Positions 4,003 to 39,906 of a stretch of 64,000 bases of DNA are shown here, piece by piece. The notes beneath the pieces were generated by a model. It saw nothing but the letters and a program-made list of their open reading frames with translations, was not told where the DNA came from and did no database searches. The position numbers and the translations under genes are program-made. This stretch comes from an uncultured virus (IMG/VR IMGVR_UViG_3300025502_000013) (taxonomy: Duplodnaviria; Heunggongvirae; Uroviricota; Caudoviricetes), in IMG/VR virus record IMGVR_UViG_3300025502_000013. One strand, 5' to 3'. Position 1 is the first letter of the stretch. Every line of letters begins with the position of its first letter.

Positions 4003-4143
4003 GTTTTCCTCCCAGGGAAAAAGCACAAGCCCCGCCATTTCTGGCGGGGTTTTGTGTGTCCGTAAAAAGTTAGGGGACACGGGGATACAATAAAAACATC
4101 AGCACGGAACAAGCGGTGTTCTGTGTCTAACCCTGGAGGAACT

Positions 4144-4299: not shown

Positions 4300-4425
4300 C
4301 AACTAGGGGAGCCCCAGCTTAGGCTGGGGTTTCTGCTGTCCGTAAAATTCGATCGACACGGACGATACAATAAAAGCACAGACAGGGACACAAGGTTTCT
4401 GTCCTAACCCTGGAGGATAGCAATT

Positions 4426-18750: not shown

Positions 18751-21700
18751 TGTCTGATAATATTCCCGTCTCCCCCCTTAACTATCACGGTTCCTTCGAG
18801 GACGAGAATAATCAAATTATTGACGCGGCTCTGGAGTTTGCACATGATGCCAACCAGGGCTATACGGGCACCCGGGTTGCCACAGACGGAGTAGTTCTCG
18901 ACGTTGCCAGGCGGACTCTCCGGGAACTAGACAACCATCCTTTCTCTGTTCGTAAACATCTTACTTTGACAGATGTTTCTCACTTTATTGTTTTGCTTCA
19001 GAAAGACAAGGCTGTTACCGCCTCGGTCCAGCACACCGATCTTCTCCCCGTTGCCCACCCTCGGTCTTCCGCAGAGCACGAGCTGAGTAACCAAGATCTG
19101 TTCGCCGCCAAAGCCCGCTGGATTGCCGACGACCCGTCTATTAAAGACGAGGAAACTCGTGCCATGGTTGCCTCGATGCTTACGGCTCCTGAGGGCTCTG
19201 CTGAGCGCGAATATTACGCAACCAGGCTTGAGAACAGCCCCCAGGGGGCTATTCCTGTAAGAGCCTTGATTGCGGCGTTTACCGGCGGCCTAGGCGCTAA
19301 CAAGGGTTACTGGATGCGCCAGCGTCGTGACCGTAAGGGTCGCTTTGCTTTCGAGGGCGGTGGCCTTAGTGTATTGGTCAAGGGCAGCACAGGTGCTGTT
19401 CGCAGGCTGACTGGTCGTACTGTTGGTCCGGGTGTTGGTGAAAAAAATGACTATTTTGATATGGAAGTTTCTCCCGGAAGCCTTGTCCGTGTTCCAGCAT
19501 CTGCAACCGAGTCTTCTAAAGCGTACTTGCCTAGCCCAAACGCCCCGGACGGATACAGCCCTCAAAAGGCTCGGGTCCAAGCTGGCGACCCCGTCATCGA
19601 CGAAAAAGACTTAATTCGTCCTGATGCTCCCAGTGGCTTTAATAAAGTTGCCGACGGAGCTGATGTCGACTCTCCCGAGGAAAAAGAGTACTATGGCGAA
19701 GACGCCGACTTTGGTACAGTGTACGAAGACGAAAATTATACTGTCCGGCAGTTTGACTCAGGGTCTTCCCCCGTTGCCCGAGACAATTTTAACTTGGCTC
19801 AGGAAGCCGAGCAGTCTTGTGGGCTCACCGCAGCCGGTGAGGGCGATAACTGTCCGATTAAAACTAGTGGCGCTGGTGAAAACGGAAGCTTTGACCCAGA
19901 GAAGCCGGTTTTGTTTGTCAGCCGTACAGACGACGCGAGCAATCCTGACATCTTTGCGGCCTCCCAGAGCTGGGCGGACACCCTAGACTACATTCGTCAG
20001 GATGAGCCTCGGTACGAAGCCGAAGATAGACCAGCCCCTTACATCAAACTTGGTGACCCGAGTAGGCGGGATAACCTTGACCCCACTAGGCGCGAAGAGG
20101 GCCCACGCGGCCCCGATAATAGAAGAGTCGATCCACACGGCTTTATTATTCCGGATAAACCCGGCCTTATTGATGGCGGGGGAAGAGTAAGACCTGACGG
20201 AACAAGAGAGTTGCTCGAGGGGCGTCGGCCGGACAGCTATCCGATGCGCATCCCCCTCCCGGGCCCCTGGAACCCCCGCATTCCCGGCACTGGGCGAAGG
20301 CCCCGCCCCGGAGGAGGCCGCGCTCCTGGCGGAGGCGGACGCTCTCCCGGAACAGGACGCCGCTGGGGCTCCAACGGCCCTAACGAGGGCCACGCTCCCT
20401 ACCCAATCCCTGGGCGTCGTGTCTACCCCGGCGAAATTGCGGACATGCGCGTTGGATCAGAGATGGAGCAATATCTCGGAGGATTCCTTTCGACTCTCTT
20501 TGGAACAGCAAAAAAGCGACAGCTACGAAAAACTGGTGCTGACGAGTGGGTTGACCTGGAGACCGGAGAGACTTACACTAACGATCAAGTCTCAGAGATG
20601 GCCGCAACTAGTGGTAAAGATAGTTCTCCTTTTACGGGACTTGCGACAGGACCCGAGGTACGCCCCGGAACATTTACTAAAATGATGTCAGGCTCGCTTT
20701 TTAGCGAGCTTCCCACCGGCAGTGAGCTTAATGATCACCTAAGACTTTTTAACGTTATGACCCAGTTCCGCAAGGTTGGGTATAACCAGTGGCGTCGGTG
20801 GGACGGCAAAATCTTTACAGATGCTGAGGTGCAAAAAAAGAGCGGCACTATGCAGATTGACCGAGTTGGAGAATTTGGTCCTGGTAGACCCCCCGGTGGG
20901 GAAGTATCAGGAGAATCCTCTAAACCAAGACTCCCCAGAGGTCCACTGACCCCCGAAGAGCTGGCCGAGCTTCGCCCCGGATCCCTTATTTCTATACCTG
21001 GAGAAGACGATCAACCTCCTCGCTTCTTTGTAAAAGTAGGCGAAAACGACTGGCGCGAGATTGACCCAGAGAATTTTACGTCAGACCCTGCAGTTTCTTT
21101 CACTGATGAAGACATTCTCAACATGGGTAAGGACATTACTCTAGAGAAAGAGCCAGAGGCCTACGAACAGGGGCAACTAGGCATGCGTCCATCAGATCTT
21201 TCTCCTGAGGCCCTGGAAAACCTCCCCGAGGGCACAGTTGTAGGGACTTCAGATGAAGAAATTGATAACCTCAACATTCCCCGGCAGCCCTATGCGACTG
21301 AAGAGGCGTACCAAGCAGCCCTAGAAGAAGCCAAAGAGTTTTACCGCCGCAATAGGTGGCGTAAGCGTGGTCCCAACGAGTGGGTAAATGACTTTGGTGA
21401 GTTTGCTACAGACGCAGATATTGCAGACGGAAAGAAAACTCCTGGACTTATTATCTCTCTCGGCGATGAGGTTAGCACCCCCGAAGGCTACTACGATTTA
21501 AATCGAGAAGAGCTTTACACGCCTACAGGCGGCGCAGAAGGGCAAACCTCACCTGACTTCACCGATGACCCCGCAGAGCTGGCTCAACGTTTCTCAGAGG
21601 AAGAGCTGCAGGCAGCCCTTAAAGAAGCCCTCGAGAACCCCAACGGTTTTGGCTATCTAGAGTTTGCAGAAGGCGACGAGCCGGTGCCTGCAGAAGCACT

Positions 21701-24700
21701 GTACTATGCCTTGGTTCGTAAGCTCGGTGTCGATGTAGCAGATAAATTTGTCAGCGTCGTTTATGGTGAAGGGCGAGCCTTTGACGCAGAGACTGAGCTT
21801 GCCCGAGAATTCCCCGACATTCTTAGTGATGACCCAGGCAAGCGCCAGGCTGCTCTTATCGAGGCTTGGAACACCCAATGGGGGCGCTCCAAGTTTGCAC
21901 TAGATAGAGACGGAAACTTCACTGTTACCGGTAAAGACAATGACAGCATTGCCACTCAGTATCTGCTCGACAAAATCAGGGCAGAAGAGTGGGGGCAAGA
22001 GTTTCTTAACGACTTCCAAGAGGAGTATGGCGAGGTTCTTAATGACCGCACTAAGGCGGCAATTAAAGATCTTTTCAAGGCTTATCCAGGACTAGAGAGC
22101 TCCGACCCCAAAGAGCGTGAAGCCGCAGTACTCAGGGCTCTAGACGATTTAATTAGTGACGACGAATATGTTGCTGATGAAGACGGAAACATCGTTGAGG
22201 TGAGCCCCAAGACTGCGCTTACTAAACTTTTGTGGGACATGGCTCAAGAGTTTATTGGTGGAACATCCGCCCCTACTGGTAGAAAAGAAGAAGGAAATCT
22301 TCCTTCCGTGATCGAGGGGGCTTCCGAAGAGGAGAAAGCTGAGTTCGATAAAACAGGTGACCCCACTCCTTTCCTCCCTAAAGACAACCCCGAGTCCTTT
22401 GAAAACGTGTGGAACAACTACTACAACCCACTTCCCGAGCCTTATGACCCCAAAGACGGTCCTGACCAGATCAATCCGGTAAATCTTGCTCGTAAATTCA
22501 CCCCTGATCAGCTGAAAGAGCAGCTTCGCGAGGCCATTCTTGATGGGAGTGGTTACGGTGTCGTTGCTTTCGAGGGCCCCTCCGGCGAGCCCATTGAGTT
22601 CCGAGTCCCAGCCGAAGCGCTGAGGGATGCACTGCAGCTTCAGGGCGAGGATGCAAACGCCTTTATTCAAGATATTTTTAACGAAAACCTTTCACCAGCC
22701 AAGCAGGTTCAAAAACTTATTGACGAAATTGCTGACCTTAAAGCTAGGCGTGATGCGGAGACAAACTCCACGGAGAAGGGCAAACTTACTCGACAGATTA
22801 ACAAGAAGACCGCTGAGATCGGGATGCGCTATAAGGCTATTGTGGCTCTTAAAAAGCGCGAGGCCCAGCTAGACCGTCTATCCAAGCAGAGCAGCTTGTC
22901 TGACGAAGAGCGCCAGCAGGTTCTGGACAAACTTGAGCAGGTTCGAGCACGTCGGGAGCAAGAAGAAGGCATCTTCAATGGAGACCTAGAGCAGGGCGAA
23001 AGCATGACCCCGTTCGAGGAAAATGTAGATGCTGAGCTTGAGAAGTTTGACTTTGAGCAGGCCTCTACTCGTACGCCAGTCGAGCCCCCTGCAGCTGAAT
23101 CTCCTGAAACGGTAGAAAAGGATAAGCCTAAGCCCGTTGTCTCCTACAAGAGGGTAGGCAACAAAGTATTCATCAGACAGCGGACTGGTCGCGTTATCAC
23201 CAACAACCCTGAGTTTAAAGAGTTTATTAAGGAAAACGGTTTTGTCTACGACTCTAAAGTAGACAAGGTGTTTGAAATTTCTGAAATGGATGACACTGAA
23301 TTTAACGAATTTATGCGTACCGTTCGTGACCGGTTCGGTATTAGTCTTGAGCCCGAGAAGGGTCAAGAAGCCATTGACTTTGATGCCTCGCCTTCACCTA
23401 CTCCTCGCCCCGTGCCCAGCCCAGCTGAGTTTGGAAAGTCCCCCAATAGTGCGTCTATTATCGAGTCTCTTCAGCGCCGAATTGCGGATATTCAAGAATT
23501 TGTTAGAAAAAAAGTTGTCCCACTTCTGCGCTCCGATAAAAGTGACGAGAGCCGGCAGGGACAGCAGCTTAATCGCAGAGCAGAGAACATTACTCGTAAG
23601 CTTAAGAATCGGATTAGTCGTCATCAAGATGAGGCACCAGTCGGCAAGGATGCTCGTGACCCCCGTGTCCTCAACATCCGCCCTACGGACTACCAAGTAG
23701 GGGATGTCTTTGTAGACGATTTGTTCACTGTTGATCGAATTGAAGTATCAGAGCCCATCACAGACCGGCAAAGTCCCTACTTTGGTGAGCGCGAAATTGT
23801 CTACTTCGGGCACTACCCGGGTGGCGTGGAGCAAATGAAAAAGCGCCCGGAGAACTTCAGAACCGATGGAGTTTACCGAGGCTTAGGGTCACCTGCTGGG
23901 GGGGACCTGCCCGCCCTGAATTCTCCCAAGGGTGAGGAGTATCTCCCCGAGGCAGCTCGTAATCAGCCTAGAGGAAATCTGGAGCAGATTGAGCGAGAGC
24001 CTCTTGACGGCCGCGAGAGACGGAATCTTTATGGTCCTAAGCAAAGAGACTTCCCCGAAGAACACGACAAATTCCTTAGAGACTATGAAAAGTACGAAGC
24101 TGACCTAGCGGAAAGAAGGGCTAGCTGGTCTCCCCCGGCTCCTTCTGGTGAAACACGACCCACCACTACATCAGAAGGCCAAGGAGCTCCAACTCCTGGT
24201 CCTCGCCCCAAGATTGTAACCGGGTCTGACGAAGCTCAAAACTTGAAGCCCGGGGATATTACATACAGGGAAAACCCAGACGGCTCTCTTGAGTTTTTTG
24301 TTGTCCAAACTGTTGAAAACCGTAAGGTAAAGACCGGGACTAAGACTGTTACGCAGGAGGCCCCCGAAGCCCCTCAGGTCGTAGACACTGAGACGGCCCA
24401 ATCGGCTCTTGACGAGGCCGTCAGGCGCTACCCCGAGCTGGGGGAGGATGATCCGGCTAGACGGAAACGTGCGTACGCCAAACTTATCGGAGAGTTTTAC
24501 GCAGAGGCCCAGCAGGCTGGAGAAGCCCGTAAAGAAGGTAAAGACTATGTTCCACTGGAGGGCCCTTTAGGAGAGCGCTTTGGTTGGCTGCTTAGTCAGC
24601 GAGAACGAGTTGTCGCAGGTGAGCCCCTTAGTGTAGAAGAAGTGGTTCCAGGCGAGCCTCGAGAAATTGAAGAAGATGTTTTCGAAGAAAAAACATTTGT

Positions 24701-27700
24701 AACTGGTTACCACCCAGGGCACGAAATTCAAGAAAAGTCTTGGAGCCCCCAGACTACTATTAATTACGTCAGAGGTGAGACTGGTCTTCCCCCGGCTGGG
24801 GATAAGCCAGCTGTTCCCGGAAAAACAGATATCTACGCTTCTACTTCCAACAAAGCGGAGCGTGCGAGGCTCCTAGCAGAGAGAGAATCCACCCTTTCTG
24901 AGTCATCAAAGCTCTACGCTCTTGACTCTGCTGCTAAAGTCAACGCTGTCCCGAGTAAAGTTAAAAACCCCAATAGTTTTGTGATGATTGGAAAGTTTGT
25001 TCCGGCTTTCTTTGGGAAAAAGATTTTGGACCTTGTCCGTGGTAAGACTGGCAAGGAAATTAAAGAAGAGCTGAAGAGCAAGAGGGTTGTGTTCCTTGAC
25101 TTTGAAAGTGTTGGTAAGGGATTTGATAGACGAAACCCAGATGCCCCAATTCAGGTCGCGGCGGTTGTCTACGAAAACGGTCAAGAAACTGGTCGTAAGG
25201 TTCTCTTTATCAACCCCGGTGAGCGCCTTGGCGGGTATTACTACGAGGCCTACCCTAAGAAAGACCAAGATGCTGCTCCTGGTGATGTCACCCCCGGAAA
25301 ACTGCCAGACGGCTCACGTGTAGGACAAATTGTTGGCGATGAGCTTATTACCTACACAAGGCAGGGAGCGCGTTGGGTTAATGATGCCAACTCCGAGGAT
25401 GTTTTAAACACAACCCAGCTAAAAACCCGCTCTTCTGAAACTCTAAAGCTAAACGAAGAAGGACAGCCCACTCTAAGAGGTAATCGTCTTCGTGATTCTG
25501 ACGGTAATCCCATCACTGATGAGTTTTTGTCCTCGCAAAAGGGACTCGAGGAGTCCTTCCGCGAGCTGATTGACTTTATCGGGGAAGATGCATACCTCTC
25601 CGCTTTTAACGCCGATTTCGACATTAATTTATTGGATAGTTTTGCGGAGCGTTTAGGGCTTGACTTCCGCAGTGACGGGTTTATCGACCCTCTAGCCCTG
25701 GCCCGGGCCCTCAATCCAGATGACTCTGTCCCCAACAACCTTCCCTCGGTCGCAACCAGATACGGGATTATTAGGGACCCAGATGACTGGCACAACGCTG
25801 AGATTGACGTTGAGGTTCTTCCAGATCTTCTGGACAAAATGCTTGATGAAGTAACCCCCGACAACTCTGTTCTTGACGCAGACAAAAGAGCAGCCGAGTA
25901 TGAGAACGGGATTCGCAGATATTTTGAACAGCTAGACCAGTGGGAGGCCCAAGAGGGGATTACACCTAGGTCGCCCGCGCCGGTAGAAGCCCAAGAGGAG
26001 CCTACACCTACACCTACACCTACACCTGCTCCTGCTCCTGCGCCTCAGGGCGAAGACACCTCTTCAGATCAAGAAATTGATGCTATGGGGATCGGGGCCA
26101 ACCCTCGCTCTATATTTGGTGACACAATAAATGAAGAGTGGATTGCAGACGAAGAAAACACTATCGTTGTGGCCAATAGTGCTAGCAATGTCAGAGACCT
26201 GCGGATTGGTGACTTTTTCGGAGATCAAAACGGAGAGTACAACGAGCTTCTTGTAGTAGAGACAGATCCCATCACCGGCAGGGAGACATTTACTTACCGA
26301 AATGTCAACACAGGAGAGATTTTTAGGGCTTTTGGGGCTCCAGGGTCTCAGGCGCGGGTGGGTACAGATCAAATGCCTTTGCGCAGGCGATCCGAACTAG
26401 ACGGGCTGAGTAACGCTGAAATTCTAGGTCTTTTAAATAATCGCGCACGTAGAGACTCTCTAAATATGGCCGTCCCTGAGGTTCAATTTGAAGACGGGGC
26501 AAGTAGGGCTGTTTCTAAAGCTATTGACGACTTTATTAACGAAGGTCGTGGAGACGCCTCCGTCTCGGACGGCTTGCCTGCTCGCGAGACAAGTGCCATG
26601 CACACCGATAAAAACGGATTTGCTCTTGCCGTAGACGACCTTGTCTATAACCCTAAGACAGGTACTACACATAAAGTAACCCAAACTTACCCAACGTACT
26701 CTAAAAATGAATACGTTAACTACGTTCGAATAAGTTTTATTAATTCCAAAGGCCAGGCCGACTCTAAGCCTATGGCGTCCGACAAACTTGAACTGATCAA
26801 TCCCCCTGCTCAGGAAGAGGCCCTTTCGCCTCTGTCAGATGTTTTTGGCGAGCAGGTCGTTATCGGAGGTAAGAAAGAAAAGCCTAGAGATCCAATTTTA
26901 ATTGCTCGCACAATAGAGCGACTTATGGGCTACCTGAACCCCGGGCCAGGATATATTCGTCCGATTGGCAATGCCATTAAGGCGGCTATTAAAGCCTATA
27001 GAAATAATGATTTTGCATCTGCTGAACGCTTTGCGGGGGCGGCAGTAGACTACGCTGACTCCATAGAAGCCCCAAAAATCACTGTTGAAGACATCAAAAA
27101 CCAGGTTGCTGACAGAGCAAGAGGTCTTGCTGGCCTGATTCAGCTGCCTGAGACAGGTCCTGCACCCAGGGAGGCCTTTGCTGAAGCCGTTGGTCTGTAC
27201 AACACCGGGAAGTATGCCCAGGCTCGCAGGAAGCTTGACACGGTGGAAGATCTACTCTGGAACGAGGCAGAAGAAGCTCGTCAATCTGCAGGTCGCTCAC
27301 CGCAAACTGCTGTTAAAAAGTTTATTGATGGAGTTGGAGAACTAGAATCTGCGATTGATGCTCCCCTAACCAGAGAATATTTTGCTCGGCTACTCCGAGA
27401 TGCTCAACGCAAAGACTATGATTTTGAAAATAAAGAGGGGATTATTCAAGAGGCACTTCAAGCCATTAGAGACGGATTTATTATCCCCGGATATCAAGTT
27501 CTTGAAAGACTTGCTCGCACCAGAGAACGCCAGCTTGATCAAAAAAATCCAAAGCGGAGAAAGCTTGGAGAAGAAAGCTATACTCAGCGGCTCACAGCTG
27601 AGATTAACTCTGACGTTGCTGAGAAGCCGGGGTCCTCTGCAGATGAATTAGCGGAGACAGGGACACCCGAAGAGGCTGCTCAGGAGCAATTAGACCAAGT

Positions 27701-30700
27701 TGTCAACACGGAAGGTCGTCGTGGTCTTTTTTACACAGACGCTGCGAGTATTCAAGAAAAAGATATTGTCTTTACAGAAAGCGGTGTTGGGACTGTCATA
27801 AAGAGGCGGGACCTTGAAGACGGGTCCATTGAATTGACTGTTACGTCTTCGCGTGCTGTCCTTGATGCAGATGGTAACGAAGTAGATCTTCTTACCTCCT
27901 ACAATAAACTGTCCTCCCAGCCCGATGATGAAATACTTCTTCTTCAACGACCCGCCAAGGACAATGCCCCTCTCCCCCAGAAAGCTCGCAGTATTGGGTC
28001 CTCTGAGATTTCTGACTCTGATTATAACGAATTTGAAGGATTCACTGGGCCAGAAATTGTTGATGAAGAGGATAACGAAATTGAGCCTCCCCCCGTCCTT
28101 AACATGGCAGTCCCGGGAACTTCTCCAGCAGAGGACGTAAATGCTACCCCAGAGCAGGCAGCCATTATGGATGCTATCGCAGAGGGAGTTAAACGCGTTA
28201 AGGTTCTAGCATTTGCTGGAAGCGGTAAGACCACCAGTCTTAAGATGGCTGCTAAGTCAATTCTTAAAAAGAACCCTAAAGCCAAGATTCTTATGGTTAT
28301 GTTTAATGTCTCTTTGAAGGAAGAGACCTCTGCAAAAATGCCAAAAGGCGTCGAGGTTCGTACCTCTGGATCACTTGCTTTCCAGGCCTTAGACCCCCAG
28401 CTTAAAAACAAACTGAGTAACCAGGCAAATACAGCCAAGTTCCCCGACATGGCCGTTTCCCTCCGGCAGGAAACTAAAAAGCTCGGCATCCAGGGTCCTC
28501 GTAAGCTTACGGTTGATGGCTCAGAAGAAGAATTCAGTGCCACTAGAGTAGCTCGGGAAGTTAAGAGAGCTGCTATTAAATTTTCATACAGCTCAGATGA
28601 TAGAGTTACTGCTGAGCACTTTGGTGATAAATTTGATGAGGTTCCAGCCGAGCTGATTAATTTAGCGCAGAATTACTTTGACATGGCTGTATCGCCAAAT
28701 GGTGATATTAAGCTAGAGAATCACCACATTGTAAAGCTTTGGTCAATGTCCAACCCCGATCTGACAAAGTTTGGCTCTGGTGTCTGGAACACCGGAGCTC
28801 AGTATCTCTTTTTTGATGAGGCGCAAGACATCAACCCAGCCGTGGAAAAAGTTATCACCAACCAGAAAAACTTTGAGTCTATGGTCTGGGTCGGGGATAG
28901 CCGACAGGCTATTTATCAATTTATGGGTGCTGTAGATGCAATCAAGAGGTTCTCTGCCGACCGTGTGCTGGCACTCACACAGTCGTTCCGCTTCGGGGAA
29001 AAAATTGCTGGGATTGCGAATCGTGTGCTCAGTCTTATCGGTGAGCCAAGACGCATTAAAGGCTCCGGCCCGAGCGGTGAGATTATCGATGGCATGTCTG
29101 ATCCGACCATTGTTATCAGTCGAACTAACCCTGGTGGCTTGGCCAAGTTGGCTCAGTTTATTGAAGAAGGAAAAGCTGTCGCCATAGACGAAGACGCACT
29201 CATGGAGTACACATCTCTGCTCGACGGTATTGCTTTCCTCAGAGCACGCACTAACAATCCGGGACTAGAGCGCCCCGCCACACTGCACCCGCAACTTGTT
29301 GCATATGACGACTATAGCCAACTCCTTGAGGAGAAAAAAGAGGGAATGCTTGGCGGAGGTGCTTCTGCAATGCTCAACATTTTGCAGAAGTTCCAAGAGT
29401 CTCCTAACGACATCGGAGCTGTGCGTGATCTCATAAATCAGTTCTCCGTGGTTCGAGACATCCCCACTGCAAAGCGTAGTGAAGACTATAAAGCTCTTGA
29501 TTACGACGACATTGAGCCCGGAAGTATTGTCCAGGTCAACGCGGAGTCCGAGCAGGCTCGCAGGGGGAACTCCGCAGCTTACGCCTGGGTGGGAGACGAC
29601 GGCACAGTTTTTGCCCGAGCTTTTGGATTCAACCGAGGTCAAGGAGCTGCTCAAGAGCGCAAAGCTATGCATGCTTACTTTAAGTCTCTAGGGTTTAAAT
29701 GGGACCCAGAGGCAAGCATCCCCGACTCCTTGCGCCAGATAAAAAACTCTAACGGTAAGTCTATGCAGACTCCGCCCGAGGGGCAGGGTGGAGCATATGT
29801 TATGCCCGCCGGGTCTCCCACAAATCTGGACGAAAACGGTCGCTGGATGCTCGCCAATCAAATTAAAAAATACGCTAATAACTACTTCCAAACTCCAGAA
29901 ACTCCCATCTCGTTTACCACTGCCCACAGGGCAAAAGGCCGTGAGTGGGATCAAGTTCTAATTGCCGGGGACTTCCCAAAGCCAGATATGGACGAAGAAA
30001 GCCTTGAATGGAAGCTTCCCGATGAGGAGGAGCTAAACCTTATTTACGTAGCAGTCACTCGAGCAATTAAAGGCTTAGATCTTGGCTCCCTGAGTTGGGT
30101 GCTGGAGGAGACCACGGACGACGACGCCGCGTATCGTCAGCCAAGTGCTGAAGAGAGCGTCTTGAACATGGCTATTCCTACTAAAAAAGTCAGCAAAGTT
30201 GAATTTGTTGAAATGGTAGATGAAGCCGATCAAGCCTTGGCTGCCCAAACCCAGCGGGTTCTGGATGAGATTAAAACAGCAATTGCGGACGGGGAAACCC
30301 CCCCGTGGGTCGCCCCATGGCAGGCAACAACCAGAAATCAAAATACTACTCCGGGTCGTCTTCCTATAAGTGTTACTACCGGTAACGCCTACTCGGGAAG
30401 CAATCTTCTTTATCTGCAGGCAGTAGCTAAGAACAACGGTTGGTCAGATAACCGCTGGGCCACCCAGGGCGAAATAGATAAGCGCGGGGGCAAAGTAAAA
30501 GCAGGTGAGCTCCCCACTAGGATGACTGCTTGGTTGCCCAACTACACCACAATTTTAGATGACGAAGGCAACGAACTTGAGACCATTTATTCGGTAAGCC
30601 CTCAAGATCACTTTGTATATAACGTTGAGCAAGTAGACGGTCTAAGCAACCTTGGAAATACCCCTAGTGCCGCATCTCTTACCCCTTCAGAAGCAGAAAA

Positions 30701-32333
30701 TGCTATGTTGGCTTCCTACGTAGACGCACCCTCTATTGTTAACCAAGAATCCAGCCCCGAAGACGTCGAAAGCGGCCGGGCTGCCGCTAACTACCAGCTA
30801 ACCACGGACACCATCTCTCTGCCTCTCAGGGAAAACTTTCCTTCTAATGAGAAATATTTTGAAGCACTCGCCCATGAACTTATTCACTCAACAGGCGCGA
30901 CTCAGCGACTCAATAGGGAAAGTGTTGCCTTCCCCGGAGGGGTGAGTGCCTACTCCGCTGAGCAGTATGACGAAATGAGAGTCGAGGAAGAGTTTATTGC
31001 TCAGATTGGTACAGCTATTCTGGCCTCCCGGTTAGGGGTTAGCCTAGATATTCCAAACTTGGCTTCTTACATGAAAGCCTGGCAAGATGTGTACAGTGAC
31101 GACCCAGACCGCCTTGTGCGAGCAGCCAGAAAAGCTCAGGATGCTGCTGATTACATTCTTCGAGGCGGTGGCGGAGGCTCCGCGTCAGCCCCTGAGGCCG
31201 CCCCGCTAGATGATTTTCTTGTCTCCTCTACTGGCTGGCAGCTAGCCGTTCCCACAGAGCGTTTTAACATGGCTATCCCGTCGGAAGACACAACTCCGGA
31301 AAAACTAAAGAGTGAAGTTTCCGAAACTAAGACTAAAGCTCAAGAAATTTCTGAAAAAGTGACCAACATGGTTGTACAGGCCATTGAAGATGGAAAGGAG
31401 CTTCCATGGAACAAGCCGTGGACAAGCGACAACATTTTCTCGATGCCCTACAGCGTGACCTCAAATAAGCCCTACCGAGGATCTAACATTGTTTCCTTGT
31501 GGGTAGCGGCGGCAGTAAACGACTGGGAAGATAATCGCTGGATTACTTTCAACGAAGCCAAAAAGCGTGGTGGGTCCGTCAAAAAGGGCTCCAAAGGCAC
31601 TCAAATTGTTAACTGGAGCCCAGTCAAGAAGAACGTAGAACAGCCAGACGGAAGCATGAAAGAGGAAGTAGCCTTTATGCGGCCCTCAGTCTACACTGTG
31701 TTCAACGTGGAGCAGACAGAGGGTGTGCAAGACCTCCCCGAGCCCGAGTTGATGGAGCCAGTGCCGATTCTAGAGGCAGAAACTGCTGTCCTCGATCGGT
31801 ACAAAGATGCGCCTCCTATTAGCAATAAGCTTCAAGATGCCGCCTTCTGGCGTCCCTCAACAGACGAAATTGTTATGCCGCTTCGGGAACAATTTAGTGA
31901 TGTAGGAGAGTACATCGCTACCCTATTTCACGAACTTACCCACAGTACCGGGCACAAGAATCGGCTAGACCGTAGTGACCTTGGCGATAAGTATTCAACA
32001 CACCTTGATGCTCGAGGAGAGGAGGAGCTTGTTGCCGAAATAGGCTCTGCTATTCTTGCCGCCCGCATGGGAATAGAGCTAGACCTCACTCGAACAGCTG
32101 GTTACGCACAGTCCTGGTTGCGCCCTTTGAAGAATGATCCCGACATGATAACCAAGGCAGCTCAGAAGGCGCAGGCTGCAGTAGACTACATTCTCGGAGA
32201 CTCCCCCTACCGGGGAGAATCCGGTCGGACTGGTGAGGAGCGTGCAGCGGACCTAGAGGCCCCTGAAGCAAATGCCGAGCCCACTGCCCCAAACCTAGGA
32301 GAGCAGGGAGTACCTGGAGATAGCAATGATTGA
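18750..32333 (+). CDS. 4527-aa polyvalent, probably virion-internal protein: DEDDh exonuclease (~25080-25850), UvrD-like SF1 helicase (~28140-30100), two ArdC + zincin units (~30250-31165, ~31340-32200)
   Basis: FLDFES / AFNADFD / WHNAEID; AFAGSGKT / FDEAQD / VGDSRQAIY / HRAKGREW / YVAVTRA; PW..PW, Y.GSN, NRW, FNVEQ, HELIH and HELTH. Confidence 0.9.
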   Translation: MSDNIPVSPLNYHGSFEDENNQIIDAALEFAHDANQGYTGTRVATDGVVLDVARRTLRELDNHPFSVRKHLTLTDVSHFIVLLQKDKAVTASVQHTDLLPVAHPRSSAEHELSNQDLFAAKARWIADDPSIKDEETRAMVASMLTAPEGSAEREYYATRLENSPQGAIPVRALIAAFTGGLGANKGYWMRQRRDRKGRFAFEGGGLSVLVKGSTGAVRRLTGRTVGPGVGEKNDYFDMEVSPGSLVRVPASATESSKAYLPSPNAPDGYSPQKARVQAGDPVIDEKDLIRPDAPSGFNKVADGADVDSPEEKEYYGEDADFGTVYEDENYTVRQFDSGSSPVARDNFNLAQEAEQSCGLTAAGEGDNCPIKTSGAGENGSFDPEKPVLFVSRTDDASNPDIFAASQSWADTLDYIRQDEPRYEAEDRPAPYIKLGDPSRRDNLDPTRREEGPRGPDNRRVDPHGFIIPDKPGLIDGGGRVRPDGTRELLEGRRPDSYPMRIPLPGPWNPRIPGTGRRPRPGGGRAPGGGGRSPGTGRRWGSNGPNEGHAPYPIPGRRVYPGEIADMRVGSEMEQYLGGFLSTLFGTAKKRQLRKTGADEWVDLETGETYTNDQVSEMAATSGKDSSPFTGLATGPEVRPGTFTKMMSGSLFSELPTGSELNDHLRLFNVMTQFRKVGYNQWRRWDGKIFTDAEVQKKSGTMQIDRVGEFGPGRPPGGEVSGESSKPRLPRGPLTPEELAELRPGSLISIPGEDDQPPRFFVKVGENDWREIDPENFTSDPAVSFTDEDILNMGKDITLEKEPEAYEQGQLGMRPSDLSPEALENLPEGTVVGTSDEEIDNLNIPRQPYATEEAYQAALEEAKEFYRRNRWRKRGPNEWVNDFGEFATDADIADGKKTPGLIISLGDEVSTPEGYYDLNREELYTPTGGAEGQTSPDFTDDPAELAQRFSEEELQAALKEALENPNGFGYLEFAEGDEPVPAEALYYALVRKLGVDVADKFVSVVYGEGRAFDAETELAREFPDILSDDPGKRQAALIEAWNTQWGRSKFALDRDGNFTVTGKDNDSIATQYLLDKIRAEEWGQEFLNDFQEEYGEVLNDRTKAAIKDLFKAYPGLESSDPKEREAAVLRALDDLISDDEYVADEDGNIVEVSPKTALTKLLWDMAQEFIGGTSAPTGRKEEGNLPSVIEGASEEEKAEFDKTGDPTPFLPKDNPESFENVWNNYYNPLPEPYDPKDGPDQINPVNLARKFTPDQLKEQLREAILDGSGYGVVAFEGPSGEPIEFRVPAEALRDALQLQGEDANAFIQDIFNENLSPAKQVQKLIDEIADLKARRDAETNSTEKGKLTRQINKKTAEIGMRYKAIVALKKREAQLDRLSKQSSLSDEERQQVLDKLEQVRARREQEEGIFNGDLEQGESMTPFEENVDAELEKFDFEQASTRTPVEPPAAESPETVEKDKPKPVVSYKRVGNKVFIRQRTGRVITNNPEFKEFIKENGFVYDSKVDKVFEISEMDDTEFNEFMRTVRDRFGISLEPEKGQEAIDFDASPSPTPRPVPSPAEFGKSPNSASIIESLQRRIADIQEFVRKKVVPLLRSDKSDESRQGQQLNRRAENITRKLKNRISRHQDEAPVGKDARDPRVLNIRPTDYQVGDVFVDDLFTVDRIEVSEPITDRQSPYFGEREIVYFGHYPGGVEQMKKRPENFRTDGVYRGLGSPAGGDLPALNSPKGEEYLPEAARNQPRGNLEQIEREPLDGRERRNLYGPKQRDFPEEHDKFLRDYEKYEADLAERRASWSPPAPSGETRPTTTSEGQGAPTPGPRPKIVTGSDEAQNLKPGDITYRENPDGSLEFFVVQTVENRKVKTGTKTVTQEAPEAPQVVDTETAQSALDEAVRRYPELGEDDPARRKRAYAKLIGEFYAEAQQAGEARKEGKDYVPLEGPLGERFGWLLSQRERVVAGEPLSVEEVVPGEPREIEEDVFEEKTFVTGYHPGHEIQEKSWSPQTTINYVRGETGLPPAGDKPAVPGKTDIYASTSNKAERARLLAERESTLSESSKLYALDSAAKVNAVPSKVKNPNSFVMIGKFVPAFFGKKILDLVRGKTGKEIKEELKSKRVVFLDFESVGKGFDRRNPDAPIQVAAVVYENGQETGRKVLFINPGERLGGYYYEAYPKKDQDAAPGDVTPGKLPDGSRVGQIVGDELITYTRQGARWVNDANSEDVLNTTQLKTRSSETLKLNEEGQPTLRGNRLRDSDGNPITDEFLSSQKGLEESFRELIDFIGEDAYLSAFNADFDINLLDSFAERLGLDFRSDGFIDPLALARALNPDDSVPNNLPSVATRYGIIRDPDDWHNAEIDVEVLPDLLDKMLDEVTPDNSVLDADKRAAEYENGIRRYFEQLDQWEAQEGITPRSPAPVEAQEEPTPTPTPTPAPAPAPQGEDTSSDQEIDAMGIGANPRSIFGDTINEEWIADEENTIVVANSASNVRDLRIGDFFGDQNGEYNELLVVETDPITGRETFTYRNVNTGEIFRAFGAPGSQARVGTDQMPLRRRSELDGLSNAEILGLLNNRARRDSLNMAVPEVQFEDGASRAVSKAIDDFINEGRGDASVSDGLPARETSAMHTDKNGFALAVDDLVYNPKTGTTHKVTQTYPTYSKNEYVNYVRISFINSKGQADSKPMASDKLELINPPAQEEALSPLSDVFGEQVVIGGKKEKPRDPILIARTIERLMGYLNPGPGYIRPIGNAIKAAIKAYRNNDFASAERFAGAAVDYADSIEAPKITVEDIKNQVADRARGLAGLIQLPETGPAPREAFAEAVGLYNTGKYAQARRKLDTVEDLLWNEAEEARQSAGRSPQTAVKKFIDGVGELESAIDAPLTREYFARLLRDAQRKDYDFENKEGIIQEALQAIRDGFIIPGYQVLERLARTRERQLDQKNPKRRKLGEESYTQRLTAEINSDVAEKPGSSADELAETGTPEEAAQEQLDQVVNTEGRRGLFYTDAASIQEKDIVFTESGVGTVIKRRDLEDGSIELTVTSSRAVLDADGNEVDLLTSYNKLSSQPDDEILLLQRPAKDNAPLPQKARSIGSSEISDSDYNEFEGFTGPEIVDEEDNEIEPPPVLNMAVPGTSPAEDVNATPEQAAIMDAIAEGVKRVKVLAFAGSGKTTSLKMAAKSILKKNPKAKILMVMFNVSLKEETSAKMPKGVEVRTSGSLAFQALDPQLKNKLSNQANTAKFPDMAVSLRQETKKLGIQGPRKLTVDGSEEEFSATRVAREVKRAAIKFSYSSDDRVTAEHFGDKFDEVPAELINLAQNYFDMAVSPNGDIKLENHHIVKLWSMSNPDLTKFGSGVWNTGAQYLFFDEAQDINPAVEKVITNQKNFESMVWVGDSRQAIYQFMGAVDAIKRFSADRVLALTQSFRFGEKIAGIANRVLSLIGEPRRIKGSGPSGEIIDGMSDPTIVISRTNPGGLAKLAQFIEEGKAVAIDEDALMEYTSLLDGIAFLRARTNNPGLERPATLHPQLVAYDDYSQLLEEKKEGMLGGGASAMLNILQKFQESPNDIGAVRDLINQFSVVRDIPTAKRSEDYKALDYDDIEPGSIVQVNAESEQARRGNSAAYAWVGDDGTVFARAFGFNRGQGAAQERKAMHAYFKSLGFKWDPEASIPDSLRQIKNSNGKSMQTPPEGQGGAYVMPAGSPTNLDENGRWMLANQIKKYANNYFQTPETPISFTTAHRAKGREWDQVLIAGDFPKPDMDEESLEWKLPDEEELNLIYVAVTRAIKGLDLGSLSWVLEETTDDDAAYRQPSAEESVLNMAIPTKKVSKVEFVEMVDEADQALAAQTQRVLDEIKTAIADGETPPWVAPWQATTRNQNTTPGRLPISVTTGNAYSGSNLLYLQAVAKNNGWSDNRWATQGEIDKRGGKVKAGELPTRMTAWLPNYTTILDDEGNELETIYSVSPQDHFVYNVEQVDGLSNLGNTPSAASLTPSEAENAMLASYVDAPSIVNQESSPEDVESGRAAANYQLTTDTISLPLRENFPSNEKYFEALAHELIHSTGATQRLNRESVAFPGGVSAYSAEQYDEMRVEEEFIAQIGTAILASRLGVSLDIPNLASYMKAWQDVYSDDPDRLVRAARKAQDAADYILRGGGGGSASAPEAAPLDDFLVSSTGWQLAVPTERFNMAIPSEDTTPEKLKSEVSETKTKAQEISEKVTNMVVQAIEDGKELPWNKPWTSDNIFSMPYSVTSNKPYRGSNIVSLWVAAAVNDWEDNRWITFNEAKKRGGSVKKGSKGTQIVNWSPVKKNVEQPDGSMKEEVAFMRPSVYTVFNVEQTEGVQDLPEPELMEPVPILEAETAVLDRYKDAPPISNKLQDAAFWRPSTDEIVMPLREQFSDVGEYIATLFHELTHSTGHKNRLDRSDLGDKYSTHLDARGEEELVAEIGSAILAARMGIELDLTRTAGYAQSWLRPLKNDPDMITKAAQKAQAAVDYILGDSPYRGESGRTGEERAADLEAPEANAEPTAPNLGEQGVPGDSND

Positions 32334-32630: not shown

Positions 32631-32907
32631 TTCTCCTGAAGAAAAATTAACAGATCATATGTACATTATTTATGACGCTCCCACGGGTCAAGTCACCCAG
32701 GTTAAGTACGAAACAGCTGCGCACGGGCTGTGGACCAGAATTCAAGGGGAGTGGCGGGAATTAGCTTTAGAAGATGAGAGCGAAGATTTTATGGAGCGCA
32801 GAGAAATTGCTGGAAAAAACTACCTAGAAACTCGTGACTATTTTGACGACCAAACCGAGCAAAAGATACTTACCTACGAGCCAGAGTACAGGATGTGGTT
32901 TGCTTAA
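32623..32907 (+). CDS. Hypothetical protein
   Basis: AAGGAG RBS; operon packing. Confidence 0.7.
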   Translation: MSDSPEEKLTDHMYIIYDAPTGQVTQVKYETAAHGLWTRIQGEWRELALEDESEDFMERREIAGKNYLETRDYFDDQTEQKILTYEPEYRMWFA

Positions 32908-35900
32908 TGATTGAGCTCTTAGGGCATAGAGGCAATAGAGTCTTATTCGACGATGACGGATATGGCGTCATTATCGACGCCCAAGAAAACACTGTAGTCG
33001 AGTACGGAGAGACCGACTCTTTGGTTGCCTCGGCAGACTGGAGCTCCTCTACGGAGTCAGGGAATTATGCACTTGCAGAAGAGCTGGCTTCTGCCGCGCT
33101 TACTGATTTAGATATAAATGTACTCTCAGCCAATGACCGTATGTACACCATCCCCGCCGGTGTGAAAGAAGAGGCAAAAAGAGGACTTAAGTGGCGCAAA
33201 GAGGAAAGCCGTGGAGGCACTAGCGTTGGCCTGAATACCGCCCGGACTTTGGCAAAAGGTGGCCAAATTGGGATTAAAAAAGTTAGGCACATTGCTAAAT
33301 ATTTTCCACGGCATGAGGTTGATAAAAAAGGTAAAGGCTACAAGCCCAAAGAAGACGGGTACCCCAGCAATGGTCGTATTGCATGGGCACTTTGGGGAGG
33401 CGACTCCGGTAAGAGCTGGGCCTCAAGGATTGTAGAAAGCGAAGACAAAAAAAATAAAAAAGGTGTCTCCGCCGGGGGGTATGACCAGAGCCCTAGGGTA
33501 GATTTCTCTGCTTTTACAGAAAAAACAGATTTTTATGTACGAATTAGATTAGATGGAACCGGCATTGACAGGCTTTATCGCGTTCTGACAGACGGCATGT
33601 GCCAAGTTTGGGACGACGGCTGCTGGGACGATATGGGCGATATTTCGTTTGACTTTATCACCTATGACAAAGCCCTGGACGACCCCTACGACTCCTGTAA
33701 AAAAATTCATGTTCCCGTAGACCTTAAAACAGCTGTAGCCGTTTCTGCTTTGTTTGACAGTGACCCCTACAGAGCTGTGAAAATAGTAGAAATTGAGCCA
33801 GAGGAAACAACCCTATTTGAAAAATCCATGGCTGAGCTTGACTGGGATGTTTTTGACCAGCTAAGTGATGACCAGCTTGAGGTAGACGACTACTGGGACG
33901 ACGGTCTTACAGCTTCAGGAACAGCTACTTTTGCAGAAGAAGCTGACAGTACCCCGGGTGTCTACACCGACGAGGAGCGCTCCGAGAACGCCTCGACTCA
34001 GGTTAGAGACCGTCTTGGTCGCTTTGCCGAGGTGGGCCAGCGAGTTGTTATTGGTGGGAACTACAACTACCAGGGAAACATTACAGCACTAGACGGAGCC
34101 ACAAAGCAGATTAGTGTCGAACTAGACAACGGCACGTCTGTTGATGTGCCGGGGGACTCTGTGCAGGATGTCTCCACTTTTGAACCAATCCCAGTGTCTA
34201 GTCCTACTGCCACTCCTTTGGATTACACAGGAATCCTCGGAGAGCCCAGAGTTCCCATCGACCAGCCCAATGCCATGCTGCCTGGACGCCTCCCCCCTCT
34301 CACCGCAACTGACACAAATCTTCTGGTAAACGACTGGGATTCCTGGGTTGCGGGGCAGCGGCTAGCCCCTGAATACTCAGGCGACCCCCTCCCTCCTTTT
34401 GTTCCCAAAGAGGTTCCTGATATTAATACGGCTATGGGGCGCTACTACGAGGGAGCATTTAATCCTGACGGATCCACCAAACCTGGTTGGAACCCCGCAG
34501 TGGCGCAGAACGTATTTAACGAACCGCTTCTACGCGACTGGCTAGATGAGCGGTACGCCAACAATTCTGGGGAAATCGGGTACCACAACCGTGGTTGGTA
34601 TACGCCTCCTGTAACGCCAAGGTCCACGCCTGTTGAGCAAAAAAAGACTCGTAGTGAGGTATACGACCCCACCAACGTGGCCTACTGGAATGATAGATTT
34701 AATCCAGTTAACTTCTCTATTACCGCTGCTGCTGACGATAAGCCCCTAACTCCCGAAACAAGTGATGTTCCGGTCATGTACCTGGCTATTGTAGCTGACG
34801 ACGACCCCCAGGCGGTTATGGAGCTTGTAGCGTTGGTGCCTGCGTCAAAAACAAGCAACGCTCCTTTCGCGTACAAGCGTGAGCCCGGCAAGTGGGTTGC
34901 TGATAACCAGATTATCTCTGATCTTAGAAGTGCAACACCACCCCCCGTAATTGTCCTTGACAACGAAATGCTTTCAGAAGTCACTGAGCAGATTGATAGT
35001 ATACAAGCCTCTGTGAAGCTTCCCTACTTTATTGCCCACACAGACAACAAGATTATTCGGGCATTAGTAGCCGCCGGTGGAGCTGACCGCAACCGTGGCA
35101 ACGCTGAAAAGCTTCGCAGGTACTGGACTGTTGGCAAAGGCGGATTGAAAATTCGCTGGAACACTCCTGGTGATTGGACTCGGTGTAACCGCCAACTTAA
35201 GAAGTACATGGGTCCCCGTGCAAAAGGCTACTGCGCTCTCCGCCACAAAGAGATGACAGGTGTCTGGCCTGGAGATAAGAAAAATATTGGTAAGAAAACC
35301 AAGAAAGCACTGAAAGCATCTGCTGAACTAGAAACACTTAAATCTGAAGACCAGATTATTTCTGAATTTACTTTAAGAGCTAAGGCCGAGTCCGCCAGGT
35401 CACGAGTTGCTGGGAGGCACGGAGTTTCTCCAACTCTGCACGGCCTTGAGTTTGTAATCCCCCTCGTCATCCCTGAAAACGTAGAAACGGGGGATGGACG
35501 TATATTTAAAAAAGGATCGATCACCCTAAGAAGTCTTCCTCTGCCTCTTCTATGGCAGATTAAAACAGGGGACGGCCATGACGGGTCCGTTGTGGTTGGT
35601 CAAATTATTTATATGGAAAGAACTAATGAAGGCATAGGAAATGCCTATGGAGTTTTTGATACAGGACCCTTCGCTAAAGAAGCAGAGCGTTTAGTTCGTC
35701 ATGGGTTTATTCGTGGGGTTTCTGCGGACATGGATAAATTTGAAACTGTAGACGAAATTCTCCCTGAAGACGAAGCCGGAGAGAAGTCAGATGATGACAA
35801 CGCCGGTAAAATAAATATAAAGAGCGCCCGTGTGATGGCTGTAACTATTGTCCCTAAACCAGCTTTCCAAGAGTGCTACATTCAAATTGTTGATAACTCC

Positions 35901-37860: not shown

Positions 37861-39906
37861 GTGGACCAAATCAAAGAAATGCTGAATCAGCTTTCTGAGT
37901 TGGCCGACGATCAAGTCGGCGAACTTCAAAGCCAGATTGTCGGCGAATTTGAAGCGGTCGAGAAAGAAGACCCTTCTCCGCAGACAGTTGACGCTATGAC
38001 GTCTCTTGCCGATATGCTCGACTCGGTTCGCACCGAGATGAAGCAGCGCGAGGCCGCAGCCCAGGAGCTTGCCCAGCGAGCCGCCGAGGCCGCTTCTCGT
38101 GTATATGGCGAAGGCGACTCAGCCGAAGAAGAAATGATGGCCGACTCAGAGACCCCGATGGAAGAGGGTACTGAAGAGGCTGGCATGGACCCTGAGGCTG
38201 AAGAAATGGATAAAGAAATGGCTATGGAAAAAGAAGGAATCGTGGACACCGAGGACGGCCCTATGGAGGTCGAAATTGAGCCCGCAGATTCTGACGACAT
38301 TGCTGAGGCTGAAGGCGAAATGCCTGATGACGAAGAAGAAAAAGCCATGATGTCCGAAGCGTCAATTGACGAAGAGAAGACTACCGAACTCTCGACCGAA
38401 GAAACAACTACTTCTGAAGCACCTGCTGAAGAAGCACCTGAGGATGAAGAGACCGACTCTTCTGAATCTGACGAATCAGCCGATGAAGATGCTGAAGGAA
38501 CCGACGAAGCCGAGGCTTCCGTTGAGTCCGATGCAACTACAGAAGCTTCCGTCGAAACTCAAGAAACCCCAACTGAGCTTTCCGCTCAAGAAACTATGGA
38601 GGCACCCGTGACCGCCGCTGCACAAAACGCAGAAAACCTCGAGATTGAGGTACCAGCGGACCGCCGCCCTGTTGCTCAGGTATCAGCAGCTCCCGTGGCT
38701 ATCACGGCAGGTGCTGACATCCCAGGCTACACAGCTGGTAGTACGCTAGAAAGCATGGACACCGTCGCAGAGGCGATGTCCAAACGAATTCACTCGCTTC
38801 GCCGCGTGAATGGTGGAGATGGAGAGCAGCACATTGTTGCTTCTGTTACCACCTCCTTCCCCGAAGAGCGTACGCTCTCAACCGATGCAGAAGCGAACTG
38901 GAACAAAATTCAGGACGTCGTTGGCCCCGAGGCCCTCGTCGCTGCTGGTGGACACCAGGCTCCCTTTGAAGTTCGTTATGACATCTTTGGATTCGGTTCA
39001 ACAAACCGTCCCGTCCGAGAGGCCCTTCCGAGCTTTCAAGCAGATCGTGGTGGAATTCGCTTCATTACTCCGCCAATTCTCTCTGACTACCCCGACGCAA
39101 TAGGCGTGTGGACAGCTGCTAATGACGCAGCTGAAACCCCCAGCCCTAGCACCAAGAACAGTCTGACTGTTGCTGCCGCTCAGGAGAACACCGTTGCTAC
39201 TGACGCTGTGACCCTTCAGCTGCAGTTCGGCAACCTGGCAACTCGCGCGTACCCTGAACTGATTGCTCGTCACAACGAGCTCGGTCTTGTTCAGCACGCA
39301 CGCGAGGCAGAGCAGAACCTGCTCAGCAAGATTGCTGCTGGTTCGACAGCCGTAACCTCCACCAGCCTCATTGGTGTTGGTCGCGACTTCCTCGTCCAGC
39401 TTGGTCGCGCTGCTACAGGCTACCGTGCCCGGCACCGTCTTGAGCCAGATGCTCCATTGCGCATTATCCTCCCCGTGTGGGTTAAGGATGCAATGGTAGC
39501 TGACCTGGCTCTGTCGATGCCTGGTGACAGCCTGCTCAACGCATACAGCGAGATTGACGGCCTGATGGCCTCTCGTGGCATCAACGCTAGCTACACCCTG
39601 GACAGTGGCATGGCCACCGCTCAAGGCGCTAACGCGCTGAACGAGTTCGCTGATACCTTCGTTTGGTACATCTTCGCTGAAGGAACATTCTTGTTCCTTG
39701 ATGGCGGAACACTGGACCTGGGTATCATCCGAGACAGCTCGCTCGCTGGAACCAACGACTACAAGATGTTCGTTGAAACCTTCGAAGGTGTTGCAAAGGT
39801 CGGTGTCGAGAGCCTTGCGGTTACTTCCACTATCCAGGTGAATGGTGCGGCTGCTGCCCTCCGTGACACCCTTGGTGGGGTTGCCTCAGCGGTAATCGAG
39901 TACTAA
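37861..39906 (+). CDS. Major capsid protein with long acidic N-terminal scaffold-like region
   Basis: AAGGAGG RBS; LVAAGG..AP....YD and GTFLFLDGGTLDLGIIRDS....NDY..F.ETFEG motifs. Confidence 0.88.
   Translation: MDQIKEMLNQLSELADDQVGELQSQIVGEFEAVEKEDPSPQTVDAMTSLADMLDSVRTEMKQREAAAQELAQRAAEAASRVYGEGDSAEEEMMADSETPMEEGTEEAGMDPEAEEMDKEMAMEKEGIVDTEDGPMEVEIEPADSDDIAEAEGEMPDDEEEKAMMSEASIDEEKTTELSTEETTTSEAPAEEAPEDEETDSSESDESADEDAEGTDEAEASVESDATTEASVETQETPTELSAQETMEAPVTAAAQNAENLEIEVPADRRPVAQVSAAPVAITAGADIPGYTAGSTLESMDTVAEAMSKRIHSLRRVNGGDGEQHIVASVTTSFPEERTLSTDAEANWNKIQDVVGPEALVAAGGHQAPFEVRYDIFGFGSTNRPVREALPSFQADRGGIRFITPPILSDYPDAIGVWTAANDAAETPSPSTKNSLTVAAAQENTVATDAVTLQLQFGNLATRAYPELIARHNELGLVQHAREAEQNLLSKIAAGSTAVTSTSLIGVGRDFLVQLGRAATGYRARHRLEPDAPLRIILPVWVKDAMVADLALSMPGDSLLNAYSEIDGLMASRGINASYTLDSGMATAQGANALNEFADTFVWYIFAEGTFLFLDGGTLDLGIIRDSSLAGTNDYKMFVETFEGVAKVGVESLAVTSTIQVNGAAAALRDTLGGVASAVIEY

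Follow-up and report, generated by a model that had tools for sequence, protein, structure and literature searches.

A recurrent Met-Ala-hydrophobic-Pro peptide at module borders of a giant phage polyvalent protein, a candidate proteolytic processing site

The window analyzed here is the whole 64-kb stretch of the IMG/VR record IMGVR_UViG_3300025502_000013; it derives from an uncultured tailed phage, whose structural region it covers, and has a G+C content of 50.8%. It includes a giant open reading frame (ORF) of 4,527 amino acids (aa), which is located among virion and late genes; in 5' to 3' order, the portal gene and the gene of a 350-aa DUF5824 protein come before the giant ORF, and after it come the genes of the protease/scaffold protein (1,600 aa), of the capsid protein and of the tail, the tape measure among them. 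Only from this gene position do we infer that the giant protein is carried in the virion. Six-frame translation of the window revealed four copies of the peptide [LF]NMA[VI]P, all of them within the giant ORF and each ahead of a module (Table 1). We found this peptide to be a selected junction signal, and we describe below why it is probably, judged from sequence, a site of proteolytic processing.

A Pfam search of the giant ORF revealed RNase_T, UvrD helicase, two ArdcN and two MPTase-PolyVal domains. A DEDD exonuclease, a UvrD helicase, two ArdcN domains and two zincin MPTase domains are thereby joined in one polypeptide, and the giant ORF belongs to the phage-type polyvalent proteins as defined by Iyer et al. 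2017 (PMC5512222). The ArdC assignments were strong, with two stretches above the cut-off for each domain (E-values of 5.6e-45 for ArdcN and 1.2e-52 for MPTase-PolyVal), and both C-terminal units have the composition of the ArdC family, an ArdcN domain followed by a zincin with the HExxH signature. The exonuclease was assigned from a Pfam RNase_T match below the cut-off (aa 2254-2356), a PHROG 192 match (aa 2255-2373) and an NCBIfam match resembling the epsilon subunit. Module A, which lies between the first two motif copies, gave no match in Pfam, PHROG or NCBIfam and no usable match in an Atlas search, and its sequence is kept in the homologues. The first 2,100 residues of the giant ORF matched no family of Pfam, PHROG or NCBIfam.

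Table 1. Features of the window discussed in the text; residue numbers of motifs, modules and ArdC units refer to the giant ORF.
Feature	Position	Strand	Basis
Portal gene	15869-17698		PHROG 776
Giant ORF, 4,527 aa, phage-type polyvalent head protein, candidate polyprotein	18750-32333	+	ORF list, translation, Pfam
DnaQ-like 3'-5' exonuclease (DEDD) module, ~aa 2110-2376	25077-25877	+	Pfam, PHROG, NCBIfam
Motif 1, LNMAVP, aa 2571-2576, precedes module A	26460-26477	+	
Module A, 540 aa (aa 2577-3116), function unassigned, between motifs 1 and 2	26478-28097	+	
Motif 2, LNMAVP, aa 3117-3122, 10 aa ahead of helicase profile start	28098-28115	+	
UvrD/PcrA-type superfamily 1 helicase, aa 3128-3791	28131-30122	+	Pfam UvrD-helicase, AAA_19, UvrD_C; PHROG 1967 (E 1e-76)
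Motif 3, LNMAIP, aa 3805-3810, 29 aa ahead of unit 1 ArdcN (aa 3834)	30162-30179	+	
ArdC unit 1, ArdcN aa 3834-3959 and zincin MPTase aa 3980-4137, HELIH at 4042	30252-31169	+	Pfam, PHROG 7245, own profiles
WQLAVP, second, weaker motif-like copy, 8 aa upstream of motif 4	31239-31256	+	Translation, alignment
Motif 4, FNMAIP, aa 4172-4177, 27 aa ahead of unit 2 ArdcN (aa 4199)	31263-31280	+	
ArdC unit 2, ArdcN aa 4199-4320 and zincin MPTase aa 4340-4484, HELTH at 4394	31344-32204	+	Pfam, own profiles
GESGRTGEE element, conserved, C-terminal, after the last ArdC unit	32214-32240	+	
Protease/scaffold protein, 1,600 aa, candidate trans-acting prohead protease	32895-37697	+	PHROG 18402, Pfam, alignment
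Major capsid protein	37861-39906	+	NCBIfam MCP_Sipho (1e-102), PHROG 777

As evident from the translation of the giant ORF, the initial annotation had placed all four motif copies correctly, and the last three lie just ahead of the helicase, ArdC unit 1 and ArdC unit 2 (10, 29 and 27 aa), as it had stated. Translation of the window in all six frames contained NMA[VI]P at these four sites and nowhere else. The looser pattern [LIFMV]x[ML][AS][VILMR]P occurred four times in the giant ORF versus an expected 0.25, and none of 500 residue shuffles reached four. With a position matrix built from the sites of the protein family described below, the four sites scored 21.2-22.1, and the runner-up in any frame scored 14.8. 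This runner-up, LTMAVP at 43628-43645, forms the C-terminal end of a 167-aa protein of the head-tail region (ORF 43145-43648), directly before the stop codon. It is the sole motif-like match in the window besides the four sites, and as roughly one match this loose would arise by chance in the coding sequence, it may be without meaning. The flanks of the four sites are acidic or proline-rich and resemble linkers. At the position of the weaker copy WQLAVP, the homologue P0004 has WQLALP.

The copies differ in their synonymous codons; the shared core is only AAY ATG GCN, and approximately 11 of 18 nucleotides are common to them. Additionally, no Shine-Dalgarno-like sequence was found upstream of any of the four motif ATGs in the window, where several true starts show AAGGAG. 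Conservation at the protein level and the lack of a consistent ribosome-binding site before the Met had both been noted in the initial annotation and were borne out here; from the two observations together, we conclude that selection acts on the peptide.

A length-restricted protein search identified seven metagenomic homologues of 4,168-5,432 aa, which share 33-78% identity with the window protein and are homologous to it over most of their length. Together with the window protein they form a family of eight, and these were the only eight motif-bearing giant proteins in the near-length search. Upon alignment of the family, the loose pattern was found at 26 of 31 equivalent junctions, which answers the question raised with the initial annotation of whether homologues lack the motif at the boundaries; they retain it. 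In particular, site 1 carried the motif at the aligned position in five of the eight members, with the variant LGLQLP in a sixth; site 2 carried it in seven of eight, if a copy in P0010 that was shifted in the alignment is included; site 3 carried it in all eight; and site 4 carried it in six of the seven members that have a second ArdC unit, with FNLDVP in the seventh. The second ArdC unit is absent from P0010. At the missed junctions, we found the near-variants LGLQLP, LAMARR and FNLDVP, or no counterpart.

The consensus of the 28 pattern matches in the eight proteins is [LFI]-[NGA..]-[M>L]-[A>S]-[VIL]-P, with Met at 23 and Leu in its place at 5 of the 28 sites, Ala at 26, and Pro at all 28 by construction of the pattern. 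Two members contain further copies. One lies 33 aa upstream of site 2 in P0005, and the other, FNLAVP, lies in P0006 directly ahead of an extra C-terminal module that the window protein does not have. In all family members, the first 2,500 residues were free of copies. The 14 motif-bearing proteins have 22 zincin domains in total, and the HExxH signature was intact in all of them.

To reach deeper relatives, aa 2540-3739 were searched against the full library, which gave 5,728 matches, and the best 150 of these were examined for the motif. Among these 150, P0151 contained MGMALP 44 aa ahead of the helicase and LGMALP 28 aa ahead of ArdcN, and P0164 contained MDMAVP 28 aa ahead of ArdcN. The strict motif was absent from the IMG/VR and metagenome relatives at approximately 30-36% identity; the loci L008/L012, L014 and L017 had Met-centered variants, with the Met invariant, at the projected junctions of the helicase (QAMAVMP, SAMAIMP and SAMIVVQ) and of ArdC (LLGMKVG, IIGMSVIP and LLGMTVNP). 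Variants at the motif 3 junction were found in P0151, P0164, L012, L014 and L017. None of the eight ATGs in L008, L012, L014 and L017 (six distinct, as L008 equals L012 there) was preceded by a Shine-Dalgarno sequence. Relative to a conserved PT.EQ, stand-alone helicase homologues start 4-8 aa before it, and the Met of motif 2 is located 12 aa before it; a cut at the motif would therefore leave the helicase with a nearly natural N-terminus. P0164 and the family members P0006 and P0009 add an ADP-ribosyltransferase (PF03496) beside the ArdC unit, with no intervening junction motif.

When giant helicase-bearing phage proteins were scanned de novo for short words that recur, unrelated junction peptides came to light in other lineages. 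The words [KR]-hydrophobic-S-S-G or GLASG occurred 5-18 times per protein versus approximately 0.3 expected, and for each of 16 ORFs none of 300 shuffles matched the observed count. Among 157 giant proteins, at least five copies of hydrophobic-[SA]SG were found in all 24 proteins that start with a Peptidase_S78 domain versus 1 of the 133 others. In comparison, the Met motif was found at a helicase or ArdC junction in 12 proteins, all 12 with a zincin and none with an in-chain S78 domain, and none of 111 zincin-less giant helicase proteins had the Met motif ahead of the helicase. Both co-occurrences rest on single clades and are descriptive rather than independent tests. Cleavage codes specific to each lineage would be expected to give such a picture, with different junction motifs in different lineages.

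The S78-first proteins are P0011-P0018, P0021-P0023, P0167, P0178, P0209, P0222, P0245, P0256, P0281, P0285 and P0287, together with those of the loci L018, L020, L021, L023 and L031. In these proteins, the [KR]-hydrophobic-[SA]-S-G copies separate modules that include sigma-70 region 4, pentapeptide repeats, ArdC and the helicase, and the next large ORF of L018 and L020 contains two to three further copies; the L018 portal contains one. This lineage looks like a cleaner candidate for a polyprotein made of a protease and its cargo than the window does. A third lineage was represented by P0019 and P0020, which contain an exonuclease, a helicase and ArdC but no in-chain S78 domain. Here PSPKEE occurred six times per protein in the form G-P-S-P-K-E-E, including copies just before the helicase and ArdcN.

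The gene downstream of the giant ORF encodes the protease/scaffold protein, which matched the PHROG 18402 family "head maturation protease" with an E-value of 4.8e-58 and Pfam Peptidase_S78 with an E-value of 0.007, below the cut-off. Its S78-like domain spans approximately aa 848-1000, and His895 and Ser943 were invariant in an alignment of 29 sequences; on these grounds the phage encodes a prohead protease. A second conserved domain (aa 1045-1225) has many invariant His, Ser and Asp residues and is the part that matched the PHROG family, and the C-terminus is helical. A profile of the alignment gave no match when compared with solved structures. A peptide in this protein, SEMAVVP, was considered as a motif copy and dropped, being only loosely conserved. 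Conservation within the protease family is 60-80% over more than 1,000 phage proteins.

In a DNA-level search, the phage collection contained no relatives of the window, and a protein search of it with the helicase-ArdC part returned just stand-alone ArdC or helicase genes below 60% identity. The nearest record, G001 (75.6 kb, rated 57% complete), covered 92% of the sampled words of the window and contained no additional motif copies apart from the C-terminal LTMAVP. By its capsid protein (72% identity), the nearest named phage is DSL-LC01, a metagenome-assembled Actinomycetia phage of 129 kb. Its ORF at the equivalent place has 3,289 aa and resembles the giant ORF only in N-terminal pieces. 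This ORF contains no helicase, no ArdC and no junction motif, and the motif is likewise absent from the head genes of DSL-LC01; the phage therefore provides no test of the junctions.

Taken together, the motif is a short, constrained linker peptide at the N-terminal edges of modules that is replaced by other peptides in sister lineages, and in this respect it resembles a polyprotein protease site. The marks of a polyprotein are found in the chain itself, namely protease domains with intact HExxH and a recurrent border site that is conserved in relatives. We consider it probable, whatever the enzyme, that the motif is a proteolytic processing site of a packaged polyprotein. What is supported of the proposal in the initial annotation is a selected junction signal at the peptide level, and this signal is most economically read as a protease site. 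The giant protein would be a late product that travels in the head and leaves it together with the DNA, so that the ejected exonuclease, helicase and two ArdC anti-restriction units may protect and process the DNA. The whole chain would be packaged through its 2,570-residue N-terminal body, with the cuts following afterwards. The hydrophobic-x-Met-Ala-hydrophobic-Pro peptide in the linkers would serve as an endoprotease recognition site, and cuts at the four sites would free a 546-aa product with module A, a 688-aa helicase and two ArdC enzymes of approximately 360 aa, assuming a cut just before the Met.

Several observations weigh against such processing. No motif precedes the exonuclease, as the matrix scan found no site upstream of aa 2571, and none separates the ArdC unit from the ADP-ribosyltransferase module that follows it in P0006 and P0009; not every domain border carries the motif. 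The mean column identity of the motif (0.60-0.73) exceeded that of its flanks (0.36-0.64) only moderately, and the main argument is the recurrence of the motif at paralogous and orthologous junctions rather than column conservation. In addition, the N4 virion RNA polymerase and plasmid ArdC/TraC1 reportedly travel uncut (PMC5512222). These last cases agree with a rather unlikely reading, to which we nevertheless give some weight, in which the motif is a short linear docking motif that stays uncut and is bound, for example, by a factor of the head interior, the portal, a chaperone or the host, so that the modules are positioned to be packaged, to be ejected or to act. The conservation data would fit any such recognition of the peptide. 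However, a docking tag need not be located exactly at module N-termini or near the starts of stand-alone homologues, no other head protein of the phage carries the motif, and the different motifs of unrelated lineages have only their junction position in common. It is very improbable that the conserved Met is an internal translation start from which the modules are also made as nested proteins, although nested in-frame starts are known in phages and the Met is the most conserved residue of the motif, being invariant in the deep variants. The absence of Shine-Dalgarno sequences in the window and in the related loci, the replacement of Met by Leu at some family sites, and the conservation of residues both before the Met (hydrophobic, N/G/A) and after it (Ala, hydrophobic, Pro) all argue against such starts. 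Equally little credence can be given to a recombination joint, a cassette border for module swapping comparable to the demarcation motifs of polymorphic toxins such as VENN and DPxGL. The modules do vary at the junctions, as with the extra module of P0006 and the missing second ArdC unit of P0010, but the nucleotide identity shared between copies is too low for homologous recombination, and the conservation is at the amino-acid level. Self-cleavage by Asn cyclization was also considered and was rejected, with Asn present at just 14 of the 28 sites.

If the motif is indeed a processing site, two enzymes of the phage come into question, and they appear about equally plausible; any other protease would be a most improbable choice. 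One tentative possibility is that the sites are cut by the ArdC zincin (MPTase) domains of the chain itself, perhaps with a delay until DNA is met in the head or in the new host. The association of the Met motif with zincins and their uniformly intact HExxH signature favor these domains, although the co-occurrence comes from a single clade and carries little weight. The motif is also restricted to the cargo half of the giant ORF and absent from other head proteins, and many zincins have a P1' preference that fits a hydrophobic Met or Leu following a small residue. Spartan is a DNA-activated relative of the zincin type. Autoproteolytic release of polyvalent-protein domains by the MPTase was proposed in print by Iyer, Burroughs, Anand, de Souza and Aravind in 2017 (PMC5512222). 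In contrast, relatives with the same zincin have quite different junction motifs, and 4 of the 25 proteins with the hydrophobic-[SA]SG motif contain no zincin at all; therefore, zincins are not the general junction enzyme. For the R388 ArdC protease, the consulted part of the published work reports no substrate, and the E229A mutant had no phenotype, the protease being dispensable in the one system tested (PMC7213743). Moreover, the cargo would be lost if it were cut before packaging, so that a delaying switch would be needed.

The prohead protease encoded by the next gene is the other, likewise doubtful candidate; this S78-like enzyme would cut the sites inside the prohead in the manner of the internal and ejection proteins of T4, phiKZ and SPN3US. 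The giant ORF adjoins it in the head module, the timing of cleavage after packaging follows naturally, and the junction motif of the sister lineage accompanies an in-chain S78 domain in 24 of 24 proteins, irrespective of the zincin. Additionally, assemblin-fold proteases have a P3-P1' layout similar to the order hydrophobic, variable, Met, small. On the other side, the matrix scan found no junction motif in the protease/scaffold protein and nothing resembling it in the capsid protein, the DSL-LC01 capsid included, and among 120 protease/scaffold homologues a matrix match of at least 10 was present in only 4, at non-homologous places. The absence of the motif from the capsid and protease/scaffold proteins therefore counts against the prohead protease or demands a second specificity. 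The size of the protease family, compared with only eight motif-bearing giant proteins, likewise implies that its main specificity is probably something else. In SPN3US, the prohead protease cuts many head and ejection proteins at a motif (PMC10052503), which provides a precedent for this enzyme. A bolder proposal, which we put forward with reserve, is that giant phage head proteins are genuine polyproteins and that the code of each lineage is matched to its in-chain protease; in the lineage of the window, this would be the ArdC zincin, activated by DNA after packaging or on entry, with the linkers as its natural substrate.

The likeness to known systems is evident in several respects, but not complete. 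As in the polyvalent proteins described by Iyer et al. (PMC5512222), the giant ORF is a very long late-gene chain of unrelated enzymes with an ArdC-N and zincin MPTase hub, located among head genes, and injection with the DNA is predicted for those proteins too. That paper names no cleavage site in the portion consulted, and the word "linker" does not appear in the main text consulted, whereas a specific conserved junction peptide is defined here. Assemblin-like peptidases were described at the C-termini of polyvalent proteins (PMC5512222); in our sister lineage, the S78 domain is at the N-terminus. The ArdC of R388 contains an ArdcN domain that binds single-stranded DNA and an HExxH metalloprotease, as do both C-terminal units of the giant ORF; that protein stands alone with 297 aa (PMC7213743), and here two such units are contained in the 4,527-aa chain, each preceded by the motif. 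T4, phiKZ and SPN3US likewise have a short recurring consensus in head-carried proteins, which is cut by a phage protease during maturation (PMC10052503). Their motif is common to capsid, portal, protease and ejection proteins and serves mostly to remove N-terminal propeptides (PMC10052503). The window differs from them in that only one protein has the motif, that the capsid and protease/scaffold proteins lack it, and that whole enzymes would be separated by it. The polyproteins of eukaryotic RNA viruses, by comparison, have recurrent short sites at module borders and protease domains in the same chain. The giant ORF shares both features; the differences are that it belongs to a DNA phage, that its modules would be delivered cargo rather than replication machinery, and that its cleavage is putative. 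The kind of protein and the idea of its processing are already in print, but this junction peptide was not found described in the portion of the literature searched, and the same applies to the junction peptides of the sister lineages, including the one tied to an in-chain prohead protease.

Polyvalent proteins occur widely among phages and plasmids, and whether and how they are taken apart is a standing question. For the ArdC protease domain, the consulted part of the literature names no substrate since the structure was solved (PMC7213743). The present analysis gives a defined six-residue junction signal ahead of four modules that is conserved across relatives, and with two named candidate proteases both questions become experimentally simple. 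If the zincin does cut the linkers, these would be the first known substrate for the ArdC/MPTase protease family, and the phage would deliver a ready-to-cut kit of anti-restriction and DNA-processing enzymes. The presence of unrelated motifs in sister lineages, one of them strictly associated with an in-chain prohead protease, suggests a general rule in which such cargo enters the head as a single chain and is cut afterwards. Such a rule, if true, would bear on how phages defeat restriction at entry and on the design of cargo-carrying phages.

Some minor features of the region were also observed. The GESGRTGEE element is present in six of the eight family members, and its copy in P0006 (aa 4825) is located 10 aa upstream of the extra FNLAVP. 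The fuller form of the element is Y-[RL]-G-E-S-G-R-T-G-E-E-R-A-A-E, which was also found in P0010 (aa 3773, 3800 and 4040), P0014-P0018 and P0021. The sister lineage contains the counterpart KLSSGRTGAES, which ties the element to the LSSG junction motif of that lineage. The capsid protein has an N-terminal extension of approximately 250 aa (37861-38600), with a conserved helical start of 85 aa followed by a very acidic low-complexity stretch; DSL-LC01 has this extension too, which probably resembles a scaffold in its role and is lost at maturation. Upstream of the head genes, at 7968-10770, the phage has an ATPase-VWA pair, made up of a MoxR/CobS-like AAA ATPase (PHROG 16448) and, after it, a 593-aa protein that matches VWA (CoxE-like) weakly.

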